Below, piece after piece: positions 44,998 through 63,100 of a DNA stretch of 64,000 bases. The stretch is from Escherichia phage vB_EcoM_ACG-C40. The notes beneath the pieces were generated by a model. The model ran no database searches, was not told the DNA's origin, and saw only the letters and a list, made by a program, of their open reading frames with translations. A program made the position numbers and the translations under genes. The stretch lies in sequence record NC_019399.1; one strand, given 5' to 3'. Position 1 is the stretch's first letter. Every line of letters begins with the position of its first letter.

Positions 44998-45615
44998 ATG
45001 TACCACTTTGTATATGAAACAACAAATCTAATAAATGGTAAAAAGTATATAGGAAAACACTCTACTGATGACTTGAATGATGGTTACCTTGGTTCCGGTA
45101 AGGCAATTCAGCAGGCTATAAAGAAATATGGTGAAAACAATTTCTCTAGAACAATACTAAAAGAGTTTAAAACTTCCGAAGAAGCGTACATGTATGAAGA
45201 AGAAATTATAACTCCTGAAATAATAAAAAGCAAAAATTATTATAATATGAAACCTGGCGGAATTGGTGGAATTGTTATGACTACAGAGGTTATAGCAAAG
45301 ATGAAAGAATCTTCCGCTAAGAGATTTGAAAACTCACCGGGCACGGTATTAGGTACAACTTGTTACACTAATGGAACTAAAAATATTTTTATTAAGCCTG
45401 GAGAACTTGTTCCAGAAGGATTTGTAAAAGGGATGGTTCATCCTAATAGAAAGTCCAGAAAAGGATGTAAAGTCAAACCGACTACCACAGGAACTTTTTG
45501 GGTCAATAATGGTGCAATAAATAAATTAATACAACCAGACGGTATTATTCCCGACGGATTTATTAAAGGTCGTCTCATGAAAAGAGATTCTAAAGGCAAA
45601 TTTAGTAAGGCATAA
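44998..45615 (+). CDS. segE: GIY-YIG homing endonuclease, SegE-like
   Basis: 205 aa; YHFVYETTNLINGKKYIGKH...YLGSG...EEAYMYEEE...YNMKPGG. Confidence 0.75.
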   Translation: MYHFVYETTNLINGKKYIGKHSTDDLNDGYLGSGKAIQQAIKKYGENNFSRTILKEFKTSEEAYMYEEEIITPEIIKSKNYYNMKPGGIGGIVMTTEVIAKMKESSAKRFENSPGTVLGTTCYTNGTKNIFIKPGELVPEGFVKGMVHPNRKSRKGCKVKPTTTGTFWVNNGAINKLIQPDGIIPDGFIKGRLMKRDSKGKFSKA

Positions 45616-45617
45616 TT

Positions 45618-47126
45618 ATGGATATTAAAGTACATTTTCACGACTTCAGTCATGTACGCATCGATTGTGAAGAGAGCACGTTCCACGAATTAAGAGATTT
45701 CTTTTCGTTTGAGGCCGATGGATATAGATTTAACCCTCGCTTCAGATATGGCAACTGGGATGGACGAATTCGTCTTTTAGATTATAATCGCCTTCTTCCA
45801 TTCGGTTTAGTCGGGCAAATTAAAAAGTTCTGCGATAACTTTGGCTATAAAGCCTGGATTGACCCACAGATTAACGAAAAAGAAGAATTATCAAGAAAAG
45901 ATTTTGATGAATGGCTTTCTAAATTAGAAATCTATTCAGGAAATAAAAGAATTGAACCGCATTGGTATCAAAAAGATGCAGTGTTCGAAGGATTAGTTAA
46001 TCGTCGTAGAATTCTTAATCTTCCAACATCCGCAGGTAAATCTTTAATTCAAGCTTTGCTTGCTCGGTATTATTTGGAAAATTATGAAGGCAAAATTCTT
46101 ATTATTGTTCCAACAACTGCTCTGACAACTCAGATGGCTGATGACTTTGTTGACTATCGTTTATTCAGTCATGCAATGATAAAGAAAATCGGTGGTGGAG
46201 CATCAAAAGATGATAAATATAAAAATGATGCACCGGTCGTTGTTGGTACATGGCAAACTGTAGTAAAACAACCGAAAGAATGGTTCTCACAGTTTGGAAT
46301 GATGATGAATGATGAATGTCATCTTGCTACAGGAAAAAGTATTTCATCTATCATATCAGGTTTAAATAACTGCATGTTCAAATTCGGTTTGTCTGGTTCA
46401 TTACGTGATGGCAAAGCCAATATCATGCAGTATGTTGGAATGTTCGGTGAAATATTTAAGCCAGTAACGACCTCTAAATTAATGGAAGATGGACAAGTAA
46501 CTGAGTTAAAAATTAATAGTATTTTTCTTCGCTATCCCGATGAGTTCACTACTAAATTAAAGGGAAAAACTTATCAAGAAGAAATAAAAATTATTACTGG
46601 GCTTAGTAAAAGAAATAAATGGATCGCTAAATTAGCTATTAAGCTTGCGCAAAAAGATGAAAACGCTTTTGTCATGTTTAAACATGTATCGCACGGTAAA
46701 GCTATTTTCGATTTAATTAAAAATGAATACGATAAAGTTTATTACGTATCAGGGGAAGTTGATACCGAAACCCGCAATATAATGAAAACCTTAGCTGAAA
46801 ATGGTAAAGGAATAATTATAGTAGCGAGTTATGGTGTATTTTCTACTGGTATTTCAGTTAAAAATCTGCATCATGTTGTTTTAGCGCACGGTGTTAAATC
46901 TAAAATTATTGTATTGCAAACAATAGGTCGCGTATTACGTAAGCATGGTTCTAAGACAATAGCAACAGTCTGGGACCTCATAGATGACGCGGGCGTGGTT
47001 TCTAAATCAAAAACATCTTCTAAAAAATACTCGCATTTAAACTATCTTTTAAAACATGGACTTGATCGTATTCAGCGTTATGCTGATGAAAAGTTTAATT
47101 ATGTGATGAAAGAGGTTAAACTTTGA
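45618..47126 (+). CDS. uvsW: UvsW DNA/RNA helicase
   Basis: 502 aa; motifs LPTSAGKS and DECH. Confidence 0.9.
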   Translation: MDIKVHFHDFSHVRIDCEESTFHELRDFFSFEADGYRFNPRFRYGNWDGRIRLLDYNRLLPFGLVGQIKKFCDNFGYKAWIDPQINEKEELSRKDFDEWLSKLEIYSGNKRIEPHWYQKDAVFEGLVNRRRILNLPTSAGKSLIQALLARYYLENYEGKILIIVPTTALTTQMADDFVDYRLFSHAMIKKIGGGASKDDKYKNDAPVVVGTWQTVVKQPKEWFSQFGMMMNDECHLATGKSISSIISGLNNCMFKFGLSGSLRDGKANIMQYVGMFGEIFKPVTTSKLMEDGQVTELKINSIFLRYPDEFTTKLKGKTYQEEIKIITGLSKRNKWIAKLAIKLAQKDENAFVMFKHVSHGKAIFDLIKNEYDKVYYVSGEVDTETRNIMKTLAENGKGIIIVASYGVFSTGISVKNLHHVVLAHGVKSKIIVLQTIGRVLRKHGSKTIATVWDLIDDAGVVSKSKTSSKKYSHLNYLLKHGLDRIQRYADEKFNYVMKEVKL

Positions 47127-57081: not shown

Positions 57082-59133
57082 TTATCCTTGAACGAACTTG
57101 TAAGGCATGTTTGCAATATCTATGCAAGACGCAATAATTCCAAGAGATGATTCTACTTTCTGTTTAACATTTGATGAAACAAATGATGCAAAGTCAACTC
57201 TGTCTTCTATATCACCTGTCATTGTAACCAATTCACCAGTTTCCATTAAATGGTCTCCGTCATAGATTACCGATTCGGTGAGTTCTTCTGTGGTCATAAC
57301 TTCAGCTTGAATAAGCTTGTTGTTAGTTCTAACTGTTCCATCGTTGTAAGATGCATCGGTTATTTTATTAACTTTGACCATTAATCCACGTGGCAAAATG
57401 ACTTCCATTTCATTTGAAGGCGCTAAACTTCCACCGGGTAAAACAACATTAACCTTATCAGCCCCAGTAATAACCCATCCAATTCCAACTAAATTATCGC
57501 TAGAATTTACTAGTCCTTCATCAGTTTTATCAATAGAAACACTTAGACGCTTTTCGTCTGGTAAAACACCCACAGATGAATCAGTCATCCAAGTACCAAA
57601 AATATTTGGATATAATGATGTTGACACAAAGTTTCTAAAATAAAAAACTCGATTTTTTACCATTGCTTCGTATATTGAAGGTAACATTCGTTGTGAACGA
57701 TACAAAGTAATACCTTTTGGTAATCGTTCACCATTTTTAAAGGCTGAATCTAAATTATCAATGGCTTGTTCTATTTCAGGTGCTGTTAAAATACTTGTAC
57801 GCTCATCTGGATTATATAATCCCAAAAGAGCATTATTTATGTCTACATATCCTGAACCTACGTATTCACGAATTCCGCGTTTTTGTGCTGGTGTGTATTT
57901 AGATGAATCTTTATTTTCGACTATAGGATGTAATGACCATCCAGCGGTAAGAGCATATCCACGTAATTCTCTTCGAATAATCTTTGTTTTTATTGCATTC
58001 CAAGAATTTTGTACTAACTCATTTGCAGCATCTTGGTTTAAATGCGAATGTCTGTTAATATTTCTTTCAAACCAAGCACCTTTATATTTTTCTAAAGTAT
58101 CATCGACGATAGAAGCAATAGTTTCTAAAGTTTTTATTGAAGTAATAGATTCTTTTCGTAATTTTTCTAAAGCTTTATTTTTTATTTCTGCATTAATAAT
58201 GGATTCTTTATCTTCAGGAATTATAGAAGCTTCTCTGAATGCCATCCCAGCTGTAACACTGCTAAGAGCATTCTCTAGTGCAAATCCTGAAGTAGAAATT
58301 ACCGTTAATTCATTAGAATCAGAAATTAAAGGAGCGTCCGCTGGTTTATTTAATTCTGCCGCTGAAGCCTCAAATTTTTGAAACATCGGTGTTTCAAATC
58401 TAGAAGATTCCAACGACTGACTTTGTGCAATTGCTCTACGGGAAATTTTAACTTTAACGATTACAGCTTGATCAGAACGTTTATCATTTTCTTGTGCAAT
58501 AGATGCTGCAATTGCCTCATTTTTAGTTACTTGAGCTCCAGTATCTTTATTGATATAAACATCACCGACCTTCGATTCAACTTTAGTAAAGAGCTCGGTA
58601 CTAATTTCCGGAACCCCTGGAATGTCTTCTAGTGATACATTTTTGCGATGTATAAGAATATATGCATACTTTTTATCATAATCCCAGAGTTCCTTAAGAA
58701 GGACGTATCTGCCACCTGAACGACTACGGATAAGTCTATCAGCAATAACTTGAATTTGTCGAGCTTGACCAGCGGTTTTAGACTTAAGAATACGGAGCAT
58801 ACAGGCATCAATTTTATACTGACGCATCGTTTGCATTGCAACAGTAAAAACCGAATTGATATAATTAATTGGGCTTGGACCAAGACCTTTCAATTTAGCA
58901 ATTGAACCTTTAGCGGTTAATGTAAAAGGAACAATATGCATCATTTTATCGCCCATCTTTAAATCACGATTAGTATCACCTCCAGATGTATAGGTACATA
59001 AACGAAAGCCTGGTTGTTCAATTGCGTCATCAACATGAACTGAAAAAATTTGCGGTATTTTCTTCTTTGGATTTAAGTTTGTAATCGGAAGAGTAGTATC
59101 TTCGTCAAATAATTCTGTAATTAGTTCCATCAT
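57082..59133 (-). CDS. alt: Alt ADP-ribosyltransferase (head-packaged, modifies host RNA polymerase)
   Basis: 683 aa; N-terminus MMELITELFDEDTT; T4 position. Confidence 0.9.
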   Translation of the reverse strand: MMELITELFDEDTTLPITNLNPKKKIPQIFSVHVDDAIEQPGFRLCTYTSGGDTNRDLKMGDKMMHIVPFTLTAKGSIAKLKGLGPSPINYINSVFTVAMQTMRQYKIDACMLRILKSKTAGQARQIQVIADRLIRSRSGGRYVLLKELWDYDKKYAYILIHRKNVSLEDIPGVPEISTELFTKVESKVGDVYINKDTGAQVTKNEAIAASIAQENDKRSDQAVIVKVKISRRAIAQSQSLESSRFETPMFQKFEASAAELNKPADAPLISDSNELTVISTSGFALENALSSVTAGMAFREASIIPEDKESIINAEIKNKALEKLRKESITSIKTLETIASIVDDTLEKYKGAWFERNINRHSHLNQDAANELVQNSWNAIKTKIIRRELRGYALTAGWSLHPIVENKDSSKYTPAQKRGIREYVGSGYVDINNALLGLYNPDERTSILTAPEIEQAIDNLDSAFKNGERLPKGITLYRSQRMLPSIYEAMVKNRVFYFRNFVSTSLYPNIFGTWMTDSSVGVLPDEKRLSVSIDKTDEGLVNSSDNLVGIGWVITGADKVNVVLPGGSLAPSNEMEVILPRGLMVKVNKITDASYNDGTVRTNNKLIQAEVMTTEELTESVIYDGDHLMETGELVTMTGDIEDRVDFASFVSSNVKQKVESSLGIIASCIDIANMPYKFVQG

Positions 59134-59154
59134 ATCCTCTCTAGTGTTTATTCT

Positions 59155-59162
59155 ATTTATAA
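59155..59162 (-). promoter_or_regulatory. late promoter (TATAAATA on minus strand) for alt
   Basis: Plus-strand TATTTATA 22 nt upstream of the alt start. Confidence 0.5.
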
Positions 59163-59167
59163 AATTA

Positions 59168-59185
59168 AAGGCCCGAAGGCCTTTA
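59168..59185 (-). terminator. GC hairpin AAAGGCC-CGAA-GGCCTTT overlapping the 3' end of the 62-aa ORF
   Basis: Perfect 7-bp stem with tetraloop. Confidence 0.4.
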
Positions 59186-59371
59186 GTAATCTAGTGGTAA
59201 GAGAGTACGATATATTTCAAACTTTGGTCCTTTTTCATAGGCATCAAATGCTTCTGTGAATTTATTATAAGCGTATGCATCTACAAATTCGAGAATGACT
59301 TGTGATACAGAAGTAGAAACATCTCCACCTTCTTTTTGAGCAATGACAATTGTTTCTAAGTAAGCTTTCAT
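59183..59371 (-). CDS. hypothetical small protein (62 aa) between gene 30 and alt
   Basis: Intact ORF; start overlaps the gene 30 stop. Confidence 0.5.
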   Translation of the reverse strand: MKAYLETIVIAQKEGGDVSTSVSQVILEFVDAYAYNKFTEAFDAYEKGPKFEIYRTLLPLDY

Positions 59372-60831
59372 AAACCAGTTACCTCATGAAAATCACCAAA
59401 TACATCTTCGAACGTATTAGCTTTAGTTTTATCTTCGCGTAAACGAATCGCAATCGGAAGAAATAATTTAACGTAATCAGTGCGGCCATCAGATTTTAAC
59501 CAACCGTTGCATTCGCACTCTAGAATTTTTCCAATATAATAATTTTGGTTTTCCATAATGCGAGTACGGTCAAGTTCATGCGATTTTACACCGGCTTTAT
59601 CTTTTAAGCCTGAACCAGCATTTACTTTAATTTTTCCACACTCTGACTCAAGAATAAATCCGCCTGCTTTAGTAGGGTCTTTACGGTGAGGATAAATTCC
59701 TACAATTTTTAAATCAACATCAATTACTTCTTTAAATTTATAGAGATTTTTTGAACGGGCATTTTCCCATAACCCATCAACGTTTTTGAGAATAATACCT
59801 TCAAGACCTTGGTCAATATACTTTTTGTAAATTACCTTAGCTTCATCTAGGTTATTTACTACCTGGTTTTCAATTAAAATTACTTTATCACAGCCTGATG
59901 TCATTTGTTCTAGTTTAGAAAAACGTACATCATACTTTAAACGAAATGCAGGAAGACCATATATTTCTACTAATGGAACATAATCCCAGACCTGAAACTT
60001 CATGCATTGAGCTTCTTTTTCTGAAATAGTTCCCTTTAAAGATTTATTAGCGATTCCATTAGAAGCAGTACGTGATTCAGCTACTTCGGCGAATTCTTTA
60101 GCTTTACTAATTTCAGGATAAGCATCAAAAAGAAAATCTAGGCCTTCTGGCTCCTTTTTAACTTGCTCATGGTATACCAATTCGCCATCAATTAACACGC
60201 CTTCTGGATGAATCTGGCGGGCTTCAGCGGTCATTTTGATTAATTCTTCCTTAAGAAGATCTAATCCTAGATATTCATTACCGGCTCGTGATAAAAGACG
60301 AACATCATCTAATTCATCACCTCTGACTTCGGCAAAGCACCGAGCCCCATCAGCTTTTAACTGGGCAAAGGCTGGAAATTTGATATTCTTATTAATGCCT
60401 TTTTCATCATAAGAACTTGCAAGCATTTGAGGTTGTTCAGGAATTAAACCTGGCCAAACTTTGTTTGCAATAGATACTGAAGCACCACATTCAAGGTCTC
60501 GCATCATCACTCGACGCAAAACTTCAACATCATCTTTTTTACCGTCAGTAATATATCCAGTTAATTCCTCAATTGCTGCATTTCCAGTCAATTTCCGAGT
60601 AGCTAATGTGAATTCAATGAAGTCAAGCATATCGGTAAGAGTCAACATTCCAAAACTCTGGGTAGCAATACCAGGTTTAGGCCATTTCTTGATATAATAC
60701 TGCAGCCCACGAGAATAAGTCAGACGATATACTCGTTTAAGCAATTCATTATCTTTATTCTTTTCAAGAATTGCTTGCTTCTGCTTAGTTGAACCAATAG
60801 ATGCTATTTCGTTCAGAATTTTAAGAATCAT
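59368..60831 (-). CDS. 30: gp30 ATP-dependent DNA ligase
   Basis: 487 aa; adenylation motif QLKADGARC. Confidence 0.95.
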   Translation of the reverse strand: MILKILNEIASIGSTKQKQAILEKNKDNELLKRVYRLTYSRGLQYYIKKWPKPGIATQSFGMLTLTDMLDFIEFTLATRKLTGNAAIEELTGYITDGKKDDVEVLRRVMMRDLECGASVSIANKVWPGLIPEQPQMLASSYDEKGINKNIKFPAFAQLKADGARCFAEVRGDELDDVRLLSRAGNEYLGLDLLKEELIKMTAEARQIHPEGVLIDGELVYHEQVKKEPEGLDFLFDAYPEISKAKEFAEVAESRTASNGIANKSLKGTISEKEAQCMKFQVWDYVPLVEIYGLPAFRLKYDVRFSKLEQMTSGCDKVILIENQVVNNLDEAKVIYKKYIDQGLEGIILKNVDGLWENARSKNLYKFKEVIDVDLKIVGIYPHRKDPTKAGGFILESECGKIKVNAGSGLKDKAGVKSHELDRTRIMENQNYYIGKILECECNGWLKSDGRTDYVKLFLPIAIRLREDKTKANTFEDVFGDFHEVTGL

Positions 60832-61097
60832 TGTTCATCCTTTAGAGTTTGGTTTACAGCTCTATTATAAATCAATTCATCATTAAGCTCAGTCAAAGAC
60901 TTATGATATGTGGTTCTAACTTTATTTCCTTGCATCCAGTGCTTGACGTAAATGAAACCTTGCTCTACGCATTTTTTAAAAATTCGTTCGTCTTTTTGAG
61001 CTCGGAATTCTGGATTGCATCTAAAAAATTGATTTACGTGACCGTAATCACGTGTAGTATTACCTTCATTTTCATAAATAGTGTGAACAACAAACAT
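60828..61097 (-). CDS. hypothetical protein (89 aa)
   Basis: Intact ORF coupled to gene 30. Confidence 0.55.
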   Translation of the reverse strand: MFVVHTIYENEGNTTRDYGHVNQFFRCNPEFRAQKDERIFKKCVEQGFIYVKHWMQGNKVRTTYHKSLTELNDELIYNRAVNQTLKDEQ

Positions 61098-61933
61098 TAG
61101 AATGCTCCTTGGAAAATATTATCACCACAAGTAGGTCTATTATACAAATACTCTATGCCACCGGGTTTAATATAGTTCCATGTCTGAAACGGATGCGTCT
61201 GATATGGATGATATGGATTATAAGGATTAAATCCAGGAGTTCTCCAGGTAGTGTTCCAAGGAAAAGAATCGTTTTTAATCATCTTTTCAATTACATCTTT
61301 TATAGCTTTTTCACTATCAAAACTTTCTTTATTTTCCTTCGGTGAAAAAAGCTTATTTTCTACATCATTCCATGTATAAACTCGCTGAGCAGTTTTTGGA
61401 ATATTGTCACGCTCTCCTCGAGCCATCCAATAAACAGGAACATTTAATATTTCACTCGCATGATCGCAGTGGTGAGCGAGATCGTCAATATAACAAATTA
61501 CGTTATATTTCTCTTTTGCCTTTTTGAACAGCTCTTCTTTTGAAGAATCATGACCACACATCAGTACTTCTGAGAAGGCACCAGGAAAAAGAGCATTCAA
61601 ATTAAATTGACGATTCAGCAGAGCGTCAATAGAATCACCCAGCGCTGTAACAGCTACAAAATTATAATCTTCTTTTAATTTGTTAATTACACACAGAGCA
61701 TCTTTATATGGAGACAAGTAACGAATAAAATCTGAACGATTGTATTTTTCAATTAACTTGACACCAAGTTCTTCATCACAATTAAAAAGTTTACCAGGAG
61801 AAATAAATTTTTCATCTTGGATCATTTTTAAAATATGTTCCAACGGAAGATTATATTTCTGAGCAAAATAAGGAAGGCCTGATTGCCAGCTTAAACATAC
61901 TCCATCAATATCAGTTAAAATAGTAGGCTTCAT
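61097..61933 (-). CDS. HAD-superfamily hydrolase, deoxyribonucleotidase-like, with aromatic/Pro-rich C-terminal extension
   Basis: HAD motif I ILTDIDGV near the N-terminus; later ICYIDDLAHH; tail ...WNTTWRTPGFNPYNPYHPYQTHPFQTW. Confidence 0.6.
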   Translation of the reverse strand: MKPTILTDIDGVCLSWQSGLPYFAQKYNLPLEHILKMIQDEKFISPGKLFNCDEELGVKLIEKYNRSDFIRYLSPYKDALCVINKLKEDYNFVAVTALGDSIDALLNRQFNLNALFPGAFSEVLMCGHDSSKEELFKKAKEKYNVICYIDDLAHHCDHASEILNVPVYWMARGERDNIPKTAQRVYTWNDVENKLFSPKENKESFDSEKAIKDVIEKMIKNDSFPWNTTWRTPGFNPYNPYHPYQTHPFQTWNYIKPGGIEYLYNRPTCGDNIFQGAF

Positions 61934-62394
61934 AGAGAGTCTCTTAATAGGTTTAACACATCAATAAATTCAGCTTCGGTTAGTATTGTATCATCTTTTG
62001 TTAGACCACTAGCCATGCTGTGCTTCAAAACTTTTCCTTTCGAGGCTTGTAATGCATCGCGAAAGCCCTTGTTTTGAATCGCTGCTTCAAAATATGCATT
62101 TGTGTATAATTCTTTCCACGCCGGGGAGTATCTTGAAAACGGAACTCCAAGCCAGAAGAGGGTCCCACGGTCCTGAGCTCTAGCATAAGACCTTCCAGCT
62201 TGTTGAGCGGCAAGCCCGGATAACCCAAATATACGTTTTTGTTGTTCAACGTTTTTCACCTTGCATCCTTGGAGGAATCCTTCAAGACCTCCAAATTGAA
62301 TACCATCCATAACGAAAGGCCATTGGGCGAAATTACTTAATGCACATGATGGCCACCTAAAATTGCTTCTAATCTCTAACTCAGACATTTTCAA
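61930..62394 (-). CDS. NADAR/YbiA-like domain protein (candidate N-glycosidase / ADP-ribose-processing enzyme)
   Basis: 154 aa; motif ALSNFAQWPFVMDGIQFGGLEGFLQGCK resembles the YbiA signature as I recall it. Confidence 0.5.
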   Translation of the reverse strand: MKMSELEIRSNFRWPSCALSNFAQWPFVMDGIQFGGLEGFLQGCKVKNVEQQKRIFGLSGLAAQQAGRSYARAQDRGTLFWLGVPFSRYSPAWKELYTNAYFEAAIQNKGFRDALQASKGKVLKHSMASGLTKDDTILTEAEFIDVLNLLRDSL

Positions 62395-62587
62395 TGCTTA
62401 TAATTTCAACATCAGCCCAATGACCATAGCAAGGAAGACGAAATTCAACTGGCCAGTTAGGGTCCTTTTCTAATATAATAGACTTAACTTGTGGTTCTTC
62501 ATGTTCATCAGTATATGGATTTTTATCTGTTACTTTATATGTGACCTTAATGTACTGAATTCCAAAAATCTTATTAATTATATTCAT
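62381..62587 (-). CDS. hypothetical protein (68 aa)
   Basis: Intact ORF. Confidence 0.5.
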   Translation of the reverse strand: MNIINKIFGIQYIKVTYKVTDKNPYTDEHEEPQVKSIILEKDPNWPVEFRLPCYGHWADVEIISIENV

Positions 62588-62781
62588 ACTAGTTCCTTTA
62601 ATCCGTAAATAGGAGATAATTCATCACCCATACGAAGGTCTTCATTTCCATCTACCCAGGAAACAATATAAGCCTCTTTTATTTGAACACCACTCCATTT
62701 AAATGGAGGTAGAACCTTAGAAATTAATCCAGGTATACCAATTCCCTTTAATTCAACAGTTTGACCTAAAAAGAATTTCAT
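62584..62781 (-). CDS. hypothetical protein (65 aa)
   Basis: Intact ORF. Confidence 0.5.
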   Translation of the reverse strand: MKFFLGQTVELKGIGIPGLISKVLPPFKWSGVQIKEAYIVSWVDGNEDLRMGDELSPIYGLKELV

Positions 62782-63083: not shown

Positions 63084-63100
63084 AAGGGGCCGAAGCCCCT
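63084..63100 (-). repeat. intercistronic GC hairpin AAGGGGC-CGAA-GCCCCT, copy 3 of 3
   Basis: Same core as the copies at 2144..2161 and 43093..43110. Confidence 0.6.

Follow-up and report, generated by a model that had tools for sequence, protein, structure and literature searches.

We analysed a stretch of 64,000 nucleotides (hereafter the window) from Escherichia phage vB_EcoM_ACG-C40 (NC_019399.1), which is a T4-like (Tequatrovirus) genome, and focused on two overlapping minus-strand genes at 61097-62394, in which a preliminary description had seen a NADAR/YbiA-like gene coupled to a gene for a HAD-like hydrolase. The region 60800-62600 matched 658 phage records, 494 of them with a query cover of at least 80%, the best identities being 98-99%; nearly all of these records belong to T4-like phages of Escherichia, Shigella and Yersinia, mostly Tequatrovirus. 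On its minus strand the window carries, in order of position, an Alt homologue of 683 amino acids (57082-59133), an open reading frame (ORF) of 62 amino acids, a DNA ligase of 487, and ORFs of 89, 278 (61097-61933) and 154 amino acids (61930-62394), followed by more small ORFs. This is the order found in the T4 reference genome (NC_000866), where the genes are named alt, alt.1, 30, 30.1, 30.2, 30.3, 30.4 and onward. The product of gene 30.3, which was renamed adfN after phage crosses had mapped the DarTG1 resistance of T-even phages to it (Johannesman et al., Nat Commun 2025, PMC11825919), is identical to T4 gp30.3 at 150 of 152 positions (99%), and gp30.2 is identical to its T4 counterpart at 276 of 278 (99%). 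The genes and junctions at the locus are the following.

62381..62388, minus strand: 8-nt overlap ATGTCTGA between the gene 30.4 stop and the adfN start, read from the sequence
61930..62388, minus strand: gene 30.3 = adfN, 152 amino acids (the ORF list runs to TTG 62394), identified by PF08010 and T4 orthology
61930..61933, minus strand: ATGA overlap between the adfN stop and the gene 30.2 start (translational coupling), read from the sequence
61097-61933, minus strand: gene 30.2, 278 amino acids, identified by phrog_420 and T4 orthology
60828..61097, minus strand: gene 30.1 (DUF3045), identified by PF11243 (E = 1e-63)
59368..60831, minus strand: gene 30, ATP-dependent DNA ligase, 487 amino acids, downstream in the same gene string, identified by T4 orthology

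Judged by the PF08010 match and by the PHROG matches (phrog_652 with E = 2e-51 for gp30.3, phrog_420 with E = 1e-93 for gp30.2), which exclude chance ORFs, both the 154- and the 278-amino-acid ORF are real genes. The former owes its length to a mechanical ORF list that extends the frame to TTG 62394; the true start is ATG 62388, giving 152 amino acids, because T4 annotates 30.3 as 459 nt. With this start the published residues E36 and K43 land on Glu and Lys codons. The coordinates given in the preliminary description stand, and the length of 154 amino acids is corrected. Inside adfN, a further open frame of 76 codons lies in the +1 frame (62025-62252, minus strand), which corresponds to the putative gene 30.3' annotated in T4. 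Almost every Tequatrovirus-, Mosigvirus- and JS98-like locus retains this 76-codon frame, a single exception having 61 codons, and among distant NADAR genes the frame measures between 22 and 91 codons.

The peptide that had been read as a NADAR/YbiA signature, ALSNFAQWPFVMDGIQFGGLEGFLQGCK, is indeed present and spans amino acids 16-43 of gp30.3 in T4 numbering. gp30.3 matches the Pfam family PF08010 (Phage_30_3) with E = 3e-70, which is its sole Pfam match at E <= 10, and a phmmer search against PDB sequences gave nothing significant. We aligned 42 diverse homologues of gp30.3 (34-86% identity), all of which match PF08010, while 16 of them also match the Pfam NADAR family PF08719 (best E = 1.5e-7); several homologues are labelled 'YbiA (DUF1768 family)' by JGI. 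The profile made from the 42 sequences has a sole PDB match, E. coli YbiA (2b3w, E = 0.0067), and this match spans the SNF...E...K segment with the catalytic Glu and Lys (S-E-H...Q-K in YbiA). A conserved Glu and Lys define the NADAR superfamily (Schuller et al. 2023; Toxins 2024, PMC11125620), the equivalent catalytic pairs in other members being E43/K50 in Pn and E88/K95 in EcC7, and the residue on the last strand is His in the phage clade, Glu in YbiA-type and Asp in DarT1-linked (BC4488) NADARs (PMC11125620, PMC11543638). None of the 42 homologues deviates at E36 or H123, at least 90% keep K43, and all three residues are present in the protein of the window, where they are encoded as follows.

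62281..62283, minus strand: codon of the catalytic Glu36 of AdfN, translates to E, invariant; E36A impairs T4 AdfN
62260..62262, minus strand: codon of the catalytic Lys43 of AdfN, translates to K, at least 90% conserved; K43A impairs T4 AdfN
62020..62022, minus strand: codon of His123 of AdfN on the last strand, the mark of the phage NADAR clade, translates to H, invariant

From these matches and residues we conclude that gp30.3 is AdfN, a NADAR protein of the phage clade, and that the earlier family assignment was sound. The protein has the same 152 amino acids in length as T4 AdfN, the same place between 30.4 and 30.2, the same E36, K43 and H123, and an intact C-terminal helix. The literature places the DarG1-type NADARs, i.e. 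DarG1 and the DarT1-associated proteins such as BC4488 (Schuller et al., Mol Cell 2023), nearest to the phage clade among cellular proteins, and they share the NADAR fold, the Glu and Lys, and the hydrolysis of guanine-ADP-ribose. However, the catalytic Asp of DarG1 is a His in the phage protein, whose gene does not lie beside a DarT toxin gene, and T4 AdfN, unlike DarG1, does not neutralise DarT1 in uninfected cells. The likeness to E. coli YbiA (2b3w, PF08719) is very remote, the shared SNF...E...K segment being seen in the profile match only; YbiA has a Glu on the last strand, where gp30.3 has His, and acts on riboflavin intermediates.

The function of AdfN has been worked out in T4, and for T4 and T2 the protein has been shown to be both necessary and sufficient for resistance to DarTG1. 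Recombinant T4 gp30.3 hydrolyses guanosine-ADP-ribose, but not thymidine-ADP-ribose, in vitro, and it cannot protect E. coli from DarT1 (Toxins 2024;16:208, PMC11125620). Upon deletion of adfN, T4 and T2 no longer plaque on DarTG1 hosts, the substitutions E36A and K43A impair T4 AdfN, purified AdfN strips ADP-ribose from DarT1-modified DNA, and ectopic adfN restores RB69 on DarTG1 hosts (PMC11825919). RB69 itself is sensitive to DarTG1 because its 30.3 carries a 1-nt insertion, which shortens the product by 15 residues (PMC11825919), and the RB69 gene measures 414 nt compared with 459 nt in T4. The adfN gene of the window is full length, with the same C-terminus as in T4, and shows no truncation of the RB69 type. 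Both experimental papers agree that T4 AdfN works in vitro and during T-even infection, yet fails to neutralise DarT1 in uninfected cells and is of little use to T5 or Bas25; the authors suggested that an unknown T-even protein is needed for its action in vivo (PMC11825919).

By orthology to the T4 protein we infer that AdfN of the window is a guanine-specific DNA ADP-ribosylglycohydrolase, which serves in counter-defence against DarTG1. In an infected DarTG1 host, DarT1 would ADP-ribosylate the N2 of guanine in single-stranded phage DNA and thereby block replication, and AdfN would hydrolyse the N-glycosidic bond and free the ADP-ribose, so that replication could be restored; AdfN would thus act as a stand-alone orphan antitoxin. 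Both the removal of ADP-ribose from guanine and the role in counter-defence, which the preliminary description had brought up for this gene, have been demonstrated for the 99%-identical T4 protein, the former in both studies (PMC11825919, PMC11125620) and the latter against DarTG1 (PMC11825919).

The coupled gene 30.2 encodes a protein with the following core.

61349..61933, minus strand: HAD core of gp30.2, amino acids 1-195, with a helical C1 cap at about amino acids 16-90

The peptide ILTDIDGV, which had drawn attention to this gene as HAD-type, occupies amino acids 5-12 of the 278-amino-acid ORF. gp30.2 matches phrog_420, whose function is unassigned, and weakly a polynucleotide-kinase PHROG (E = 0.0026), and it has no match in PADLOC. 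A search of 5.8 billion proteins returned 100 gp30.2 homologues. Nearly all of those with a name belong to T4-like phages, and the source databases give a few the label HAD hydrolase, FMN phosphatase or 5'(3')-deoxyribonucleotidase. In an alignment of 63 homologues we recognised the four HAD motifs, namely motif I (D8-I-D10-G-V12) with D8 and D10 invariant, motif II with T96 kept in at least 90%, motif III with K132 invariant, and motif IV (D150-D151) kept in at least 90%; D8, D10, R108 and K132 are still invariant in a set of 60 far more distant relatives. The AlphaFold2 model made from the 63-sequence alignment reached a predicted local distance difference test score (pLDDT) of 84.5, in contrast to an unusable single-sequence model with a pLDDT of 36, and it displays a Rossmannoid HAD fold with a cap domain. 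Foldseek against the PDB gave HAD-superfamily entries across the 50 matches listed, with E values of about 4e-8, and these matches include the cdN and mdN deoxyribonucleotidases. Based on the motifs and the predicted fold, we regard the membership of gp30.2 in the HAD superfamily as firm.

Within this superfamily, the 5'(3')-deoxyribonucleotidase-like NT5C branch is our best guess. The best PDB match of the gp30.2 profile, 2jao, is weak (E = 0.1) and runs via D-x-D-G-V-L-x-x-(W/F)-x-S-G-L. The Pfam family PF06941 is matched by 11 of the 63 close relatives and is the commonest Pfam match among the distant ones (17/60, best E = 1.5e-9), one of which matches HAD_PNKP; the distant relatives were taken from an exhaustive profile search that returned 1279 clusters at E <= 0.001, counted as 50% identity clusters of the wider family. 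With cdN, mdN and bacterial NT5C-like enzymes (PF06941; 2jao, 2i7d, 1q92, 3bwv) gp30.2 shares the HAD core, the helical C1 cap, the four motifs and a segment D-x-D-G-V-x-x-x-(W/F)-x-S-G-L. It differs from them in that the identity is 14-22%, the protein of the window falls below the PF06941 model, and a C-terminal extension of about 85 amino acids, including a disordered tail, is present. Most likely, gp30.2 would be a phosphatase for small molecules, with a nucleoside or deoxynucleoside monophosphate, or some comparable compound, as its substrate.

The two genes are embedded in a tightly packed string. Gene 30.2, which had been called the upstream partner of the pair, lies transcriptionally downstream of adfN, while its description as HAD-type and coupled was appropriate. 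The 30.2 stop and the 30.1 start share TAATG, genes 30.1 and 30 overlap by 4 nt, and genes 30.6 to alt.1 form a gapless run in which every junction but one overlaps by 1-8 nt. A scan of the coding strand from 30.6 to alt.1 detected no terminator-like site. Since the genes are gapless and no terminator intervenes, it is plausible that ligase, adfN and 30.2 share one transcription unit, as had been proposed. A GC-rich hairpin with a tetraloop (AGGGGC-TTCG-GCCCCT on the coding strand, 63085-63100) separates 30.7 from 30.6 and immediately precedes the ribosome-binding site of the latter. As an intrinsic terminator it was ruled out, because a T-run is absent from the coding strand, and the transcription unit is therefore unbroken there; the hairpin could be an RNA-stability or processing element.

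The string ends before alt, and two elements mark this end.

59166-59185, minus strand: terminator-like hairpin after alt.1 (AAAGGCC-TTCG-GGCCTTT), followed by T-rich sequence; ends the early gene string
59154-59161, minus strand: T4 late-promoter box TATAAATA, 21 nt ahead of the start of alt

The region 59154-59185 thus separates the early string of the ligase gene from the late gene alt. Since the hairpin and then the late-promoter box precede alt, the latter is a separate late transcription unit, and genes 30.3 and 30.2 are part of an early string that runs through ligase and stops at the terminator. The preliminary description had mentioned the position near alt, which is indeed close, at about 2 kb; the proximity of alt to adfN, however, has no demonstrated meaning. 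NADARs of T4-like phages have been noted as early genes near ADP-ribosyltransferases (Iyer et al. 2022). Alt is packaged in the capsid and ADP-ribosylates protein, namely RNA polymerase, and not DNA (T4 annotation, NC_000866). We considered and rejected a NADAR that reverses the ADP-ribosylation by Alt, because alt is late with its own promoter, the target of Alt is protein, and NADARs are specific for guanine-ADP-ribose.

We then asked how far the neighbours belong together by a reciprocal survey of 80 IMG/VR loci retrieved with the gp30.2 profile and 80 viral loci retrieved with the gp30.3 profile, with 6-kb flanks. A DNA ligase gene is found in 75 of the 80 gp30.2-profile loci, directly downstream of gp30.2 in 68, and a gp30.3-family gene lies in the flank of 37 and adjoins gp30.2 in 20. 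Conversely, 20 of the 80 gp30.3-profile loci have gp30.2 within 6 kb, the other 60 being loci of diverse large phages. The pair is adjacent in all Tequatrovirus-, Mosigvirus- and JS98-like loci. From the survey we conclude that the NADAR gene behaves as a mobile accessory gene and gp30.2 as part of a conserved ligase neighbourhood, although the linkage of 30.2 to ligase is weak evidence for a shared function, because gene order is broadly conserved in T4-like phages. Only some lineages have adfN and 30.2 side by side, and no evidence places the two in one pathway; the idea of a conserved NADAR-HAD operon was rejected on the survey, and a functional unit of the two genes is not supported. In at least eight T4-like genomes, a NADAR gene of the gp30.3 family (about 40% identity) lies about 60 kb from the 30.2-ligase region (locus pairs L018/L116, L022/L146, L025/L152, L076/L125, L035/L144, L041/L111, L067/L108 and L054/L161), and this gene must therefore have moved or been independently acquired within T4-like phages.

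Taken together, we read the locus as an anti-DarTG1 NADAR gene, adfN, followed by a gene for a HAD phosphatase, 30.2, both in an early gene string and with no shared pathway evident, and we give this reading a probability of roughly 0.88. Several points weigh against it. As a single sequence, gp30.3 does not match the Pfam NADAR family PF08719 even at E <= 10, and it has no match in PADLOC or NCBIfam; likewise, gp30.2 as a single sequence has no significant match in Pfam (E <= 10), NCBIfam or the PDB (phmmer). The searchable literature yielded no paper that mentions gp30.2 and no experiment on it. Moreover, the activity of AdfN is transferred here from the T4 orthologue, from which the protein of the window is separated by two substitutions, R51K and I125M, both conservative and the sole differences. 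Concerning the first point, the single sequence misses PF08719 because Pfam splits the phage clade off into PF08010, and a match to PF08719 is a detection criterion, not a structural definition of NADAR; the profile search thus failed with the single sequence and succeeded with 16 of the 42 homologues.

A different role for gp30.2 is suggested by its C-terminus, whose features, together with that of the ligase, are the following.

61100..61267, minus strand: C-terminal tail of gp30.2, amino acids 223-278, predicted to be disordered, Pro/Trp/Tyr/Phe-rich and hypervariable, judged by pLDDT, composition and 100 homologues
61142..61159, minus strand: GIEYLY, amino acids 259-264 of gp30.2, conserved tail island and candidate clamp motif, resembles (S/G)LDFL(F/Y)
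60127-60144, minus strand: gp45-binding loop GLDFLF of the ligase, amino acids 230-235, exact match to the 2018 crystal structure

The aromatic and Pro-rich tail of the preliminary description is real, since Pro, Trp, Tyr and Phe make up 39% of amino acids 223-278. The pLDDT of the tail is mostly below 55, and below 50 at amino acids 226-231, 242-260 and 268-278. About 45% of the 100 gp30.2 homologues end after the HAD core, at 196-225 amino acids, and have no tail, and the tailed ones carry unrelated tail sequences of similar composition. The RB69 protein, for example, is 71% identical to that of the window over 262 aligned amino acids, with a nearly identical HAD core and a completely diverged tail. 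The sole recurring island in the tail is G(T)GIEYLx(R/N)QPT, which is found in about 20 of the 100 homologues and reads GGIEYLYNRPT in the window, where the tail peptide of amino acids 250-278 carries KPGGIEYLYNRPTCGDNIFQGAF. In two Tequatrovirus relatives (L004:6650-6846 and L005) a cluster of in-frame changes, among them a 3-nt deletion, turns this sequence into GDAGYFNRLT; the tail is otherwise 90% identical, and it is precisely at the conserved island that the substitutions accumulate.

The island resembles the motif by which T4 proteins bind the sliding clamp gp45, i.e. SLDFLFG in gp43, SLDFLYEAND in gp55 and TLDFLL in gp33. In the ligase, L231, F233, L234 and F235 of the loop GLDFLF sit in the gp45 pocket of a crystal structure (Shi et al., NAR 2018), and the corresponding ligase peptide reads EPEGLDFLFDAY. 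In other T4-like lineages the same ligase loop reads LGFLF, LDDIF, LDDMF or DLFSMF. Compared position by position with these LDFLF-type motifs (Shi et al., NAR 2018), GIEYLY is a conservative variant and lies in a flexible stretch close to the C-terminus, but it is not identical to them, is not terminal (14 residues follow) and is missing in RB69 and in some Tequatroviruses. We searched six-frame ORFs from about 153 kb of DNA (T4 1-50 kb, the window and T4 130-169 kb; 55.7 k residues in total) with the pattern [STG][LIVM][DE][FY][LIVM][FY], which was chosen after GIEYLY had been seen, and obtained four matches, namely gp43, gp55, ligase and gp30.2, of which the first three are known gp45 binders. 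Residue shuffles gave a mean of 0.44 matches, none of 500 reached four, and shuffled gp30.2 matched with P = 0.003. A relaxed pattern gave extra matches, including an antisense ORF (45438-45686, minus strand, 71-82 amino acids) that ends in FLDFLLG. This end mimics the clamp-binding C-termini of gp43 and gp33. Two structural genes occupy the plus strand there, and the ORF has probably arisen by chance. We therefore rejected the relaxed pattern as unspecific.

These observations raise the possibility that gp30.2 is tethered to the replisome, its tail docking to gp45 via GIEYLY, so that the phosphatase would work beside the ligase, either on DNA ends in the manner of PNKP or on nucleotides. The excess of pattern matches over the shuffled sequences would fit such a docking, as would the presumably disordered, low-confidence segment (pLDDT of about 50 or lower) in which GIEYLY lies, its standing as the only conserved island of the tail, the position of gp30.2 directly upstream of the ligase gene in most loci, and the weak matches to the polynucleotide-kinase PHROG and, in one distant relative, to HAD_PNKP. 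However, the pattern was defined with the motif already in view, GIEYL does not co-vary with the ligase motif and persists where the ligase has LDDIF or LGFLF, and RB69 gp30.2 lacks GIEYLY while some Tequatroviruses have GDAGYF in its place, quite apart from the many homologues without any tail. The fifth position of the motif is often polar, e.g. IEYLN, the island continues with ...xxQPT, unlike clamp motifs, the C1 cap would suit a small substrate better than a DNA end, and the synteny with ligase counts for little in phages whose gene order is strongly conserved in general. We regard the tethering as unlikely, and GIEYLY as a gp45-binding motif is suggestive but weak, a lead and not a finding.

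Another explanation takes adfN and 30.2 as a two-enzyme module, in which gp30.2 would be the T-even factor that AdfN needs in vivo, or would process the released ADP-ribose. It could draw on the ATGA overlap, on the adjacency of the pair in the Tequatrovirus-, Mosigvirus- and JS98-like loci, on the failure of T4 AdfN against DarT1 in uninfected E. coli and its bare rescue of T5 or Bas25, and on RB69, which is rescued by ectopic T4 AdfN and has its own gp30.2 with the near-identical core. Against this stand both directions of the survey, i.e. a gp30.2 homologue near only 20 of the 80 gp30.3-profile loci and a NADAR gene near 37, and adjoining 20, of the 80 gp30.2-profile loci, as well as the T4-like genomes with the two genes some 60 kb apart and the many phages that keep gp30.2 with no NADAR gene nearby. 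In addition, the reaction of AdfN offers a HAD phosphatase no evident substrate, and dozens of other T-even-specific T4 proteins could be the missing factor. The co-occurrence speaks against an obligate partnership, a lineage-specific one may exist, and the module as such appears very unlikely to us. The combined proposal that gp30.2 is a clamp-recruited phosphatase for nucleotides or DNA ends, and/or the T-even factor that restricts T4 AdfN to T-even infection, is decidedly improbable as well.

That gp30.3 acts mainly on soluble ADP-ribose derivatives, such as immune signals or by-products of RNA repair, or on riboflavin intermediates, rather than on DNA, would agree with the soluble derivatives proposed for phage NADARs on the basis of context and with the action of YbiA-type NADARs on riboflavin intermediates (both Iyer et al. 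2022), yet it is largely refuted and has hardly any probability left as the main role, given that genetics and biochemistry directly establish ADP-ribosylated DNA as a target of T4 AdfN and the protein as a requirement for withstanding DarTG1, and given the His of the phage clade at the position of the defining Glu of YbiA.

The preferred reading therefore remains that of an anti-DarTG1 NADAR next to a HAD phosphatase. The finding on adfN is correct, yet already known, having been published in 2024-2025 for exactly this gene; it is not new because adfN has already been characterised as a counter-defence gene in T4 in that work. Likewise, homologues of gp30.2 are already labelled as HAD hydrolases in some database records. 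The reading of the sequence by itself recovered a real counter-defence gene, and it adds no new biology. As for gp30.2, it is widespread in T4-like phages, and the translationally coupled gene 30.2 is one candidate among many for the dependence of AdfN on T-even infection.

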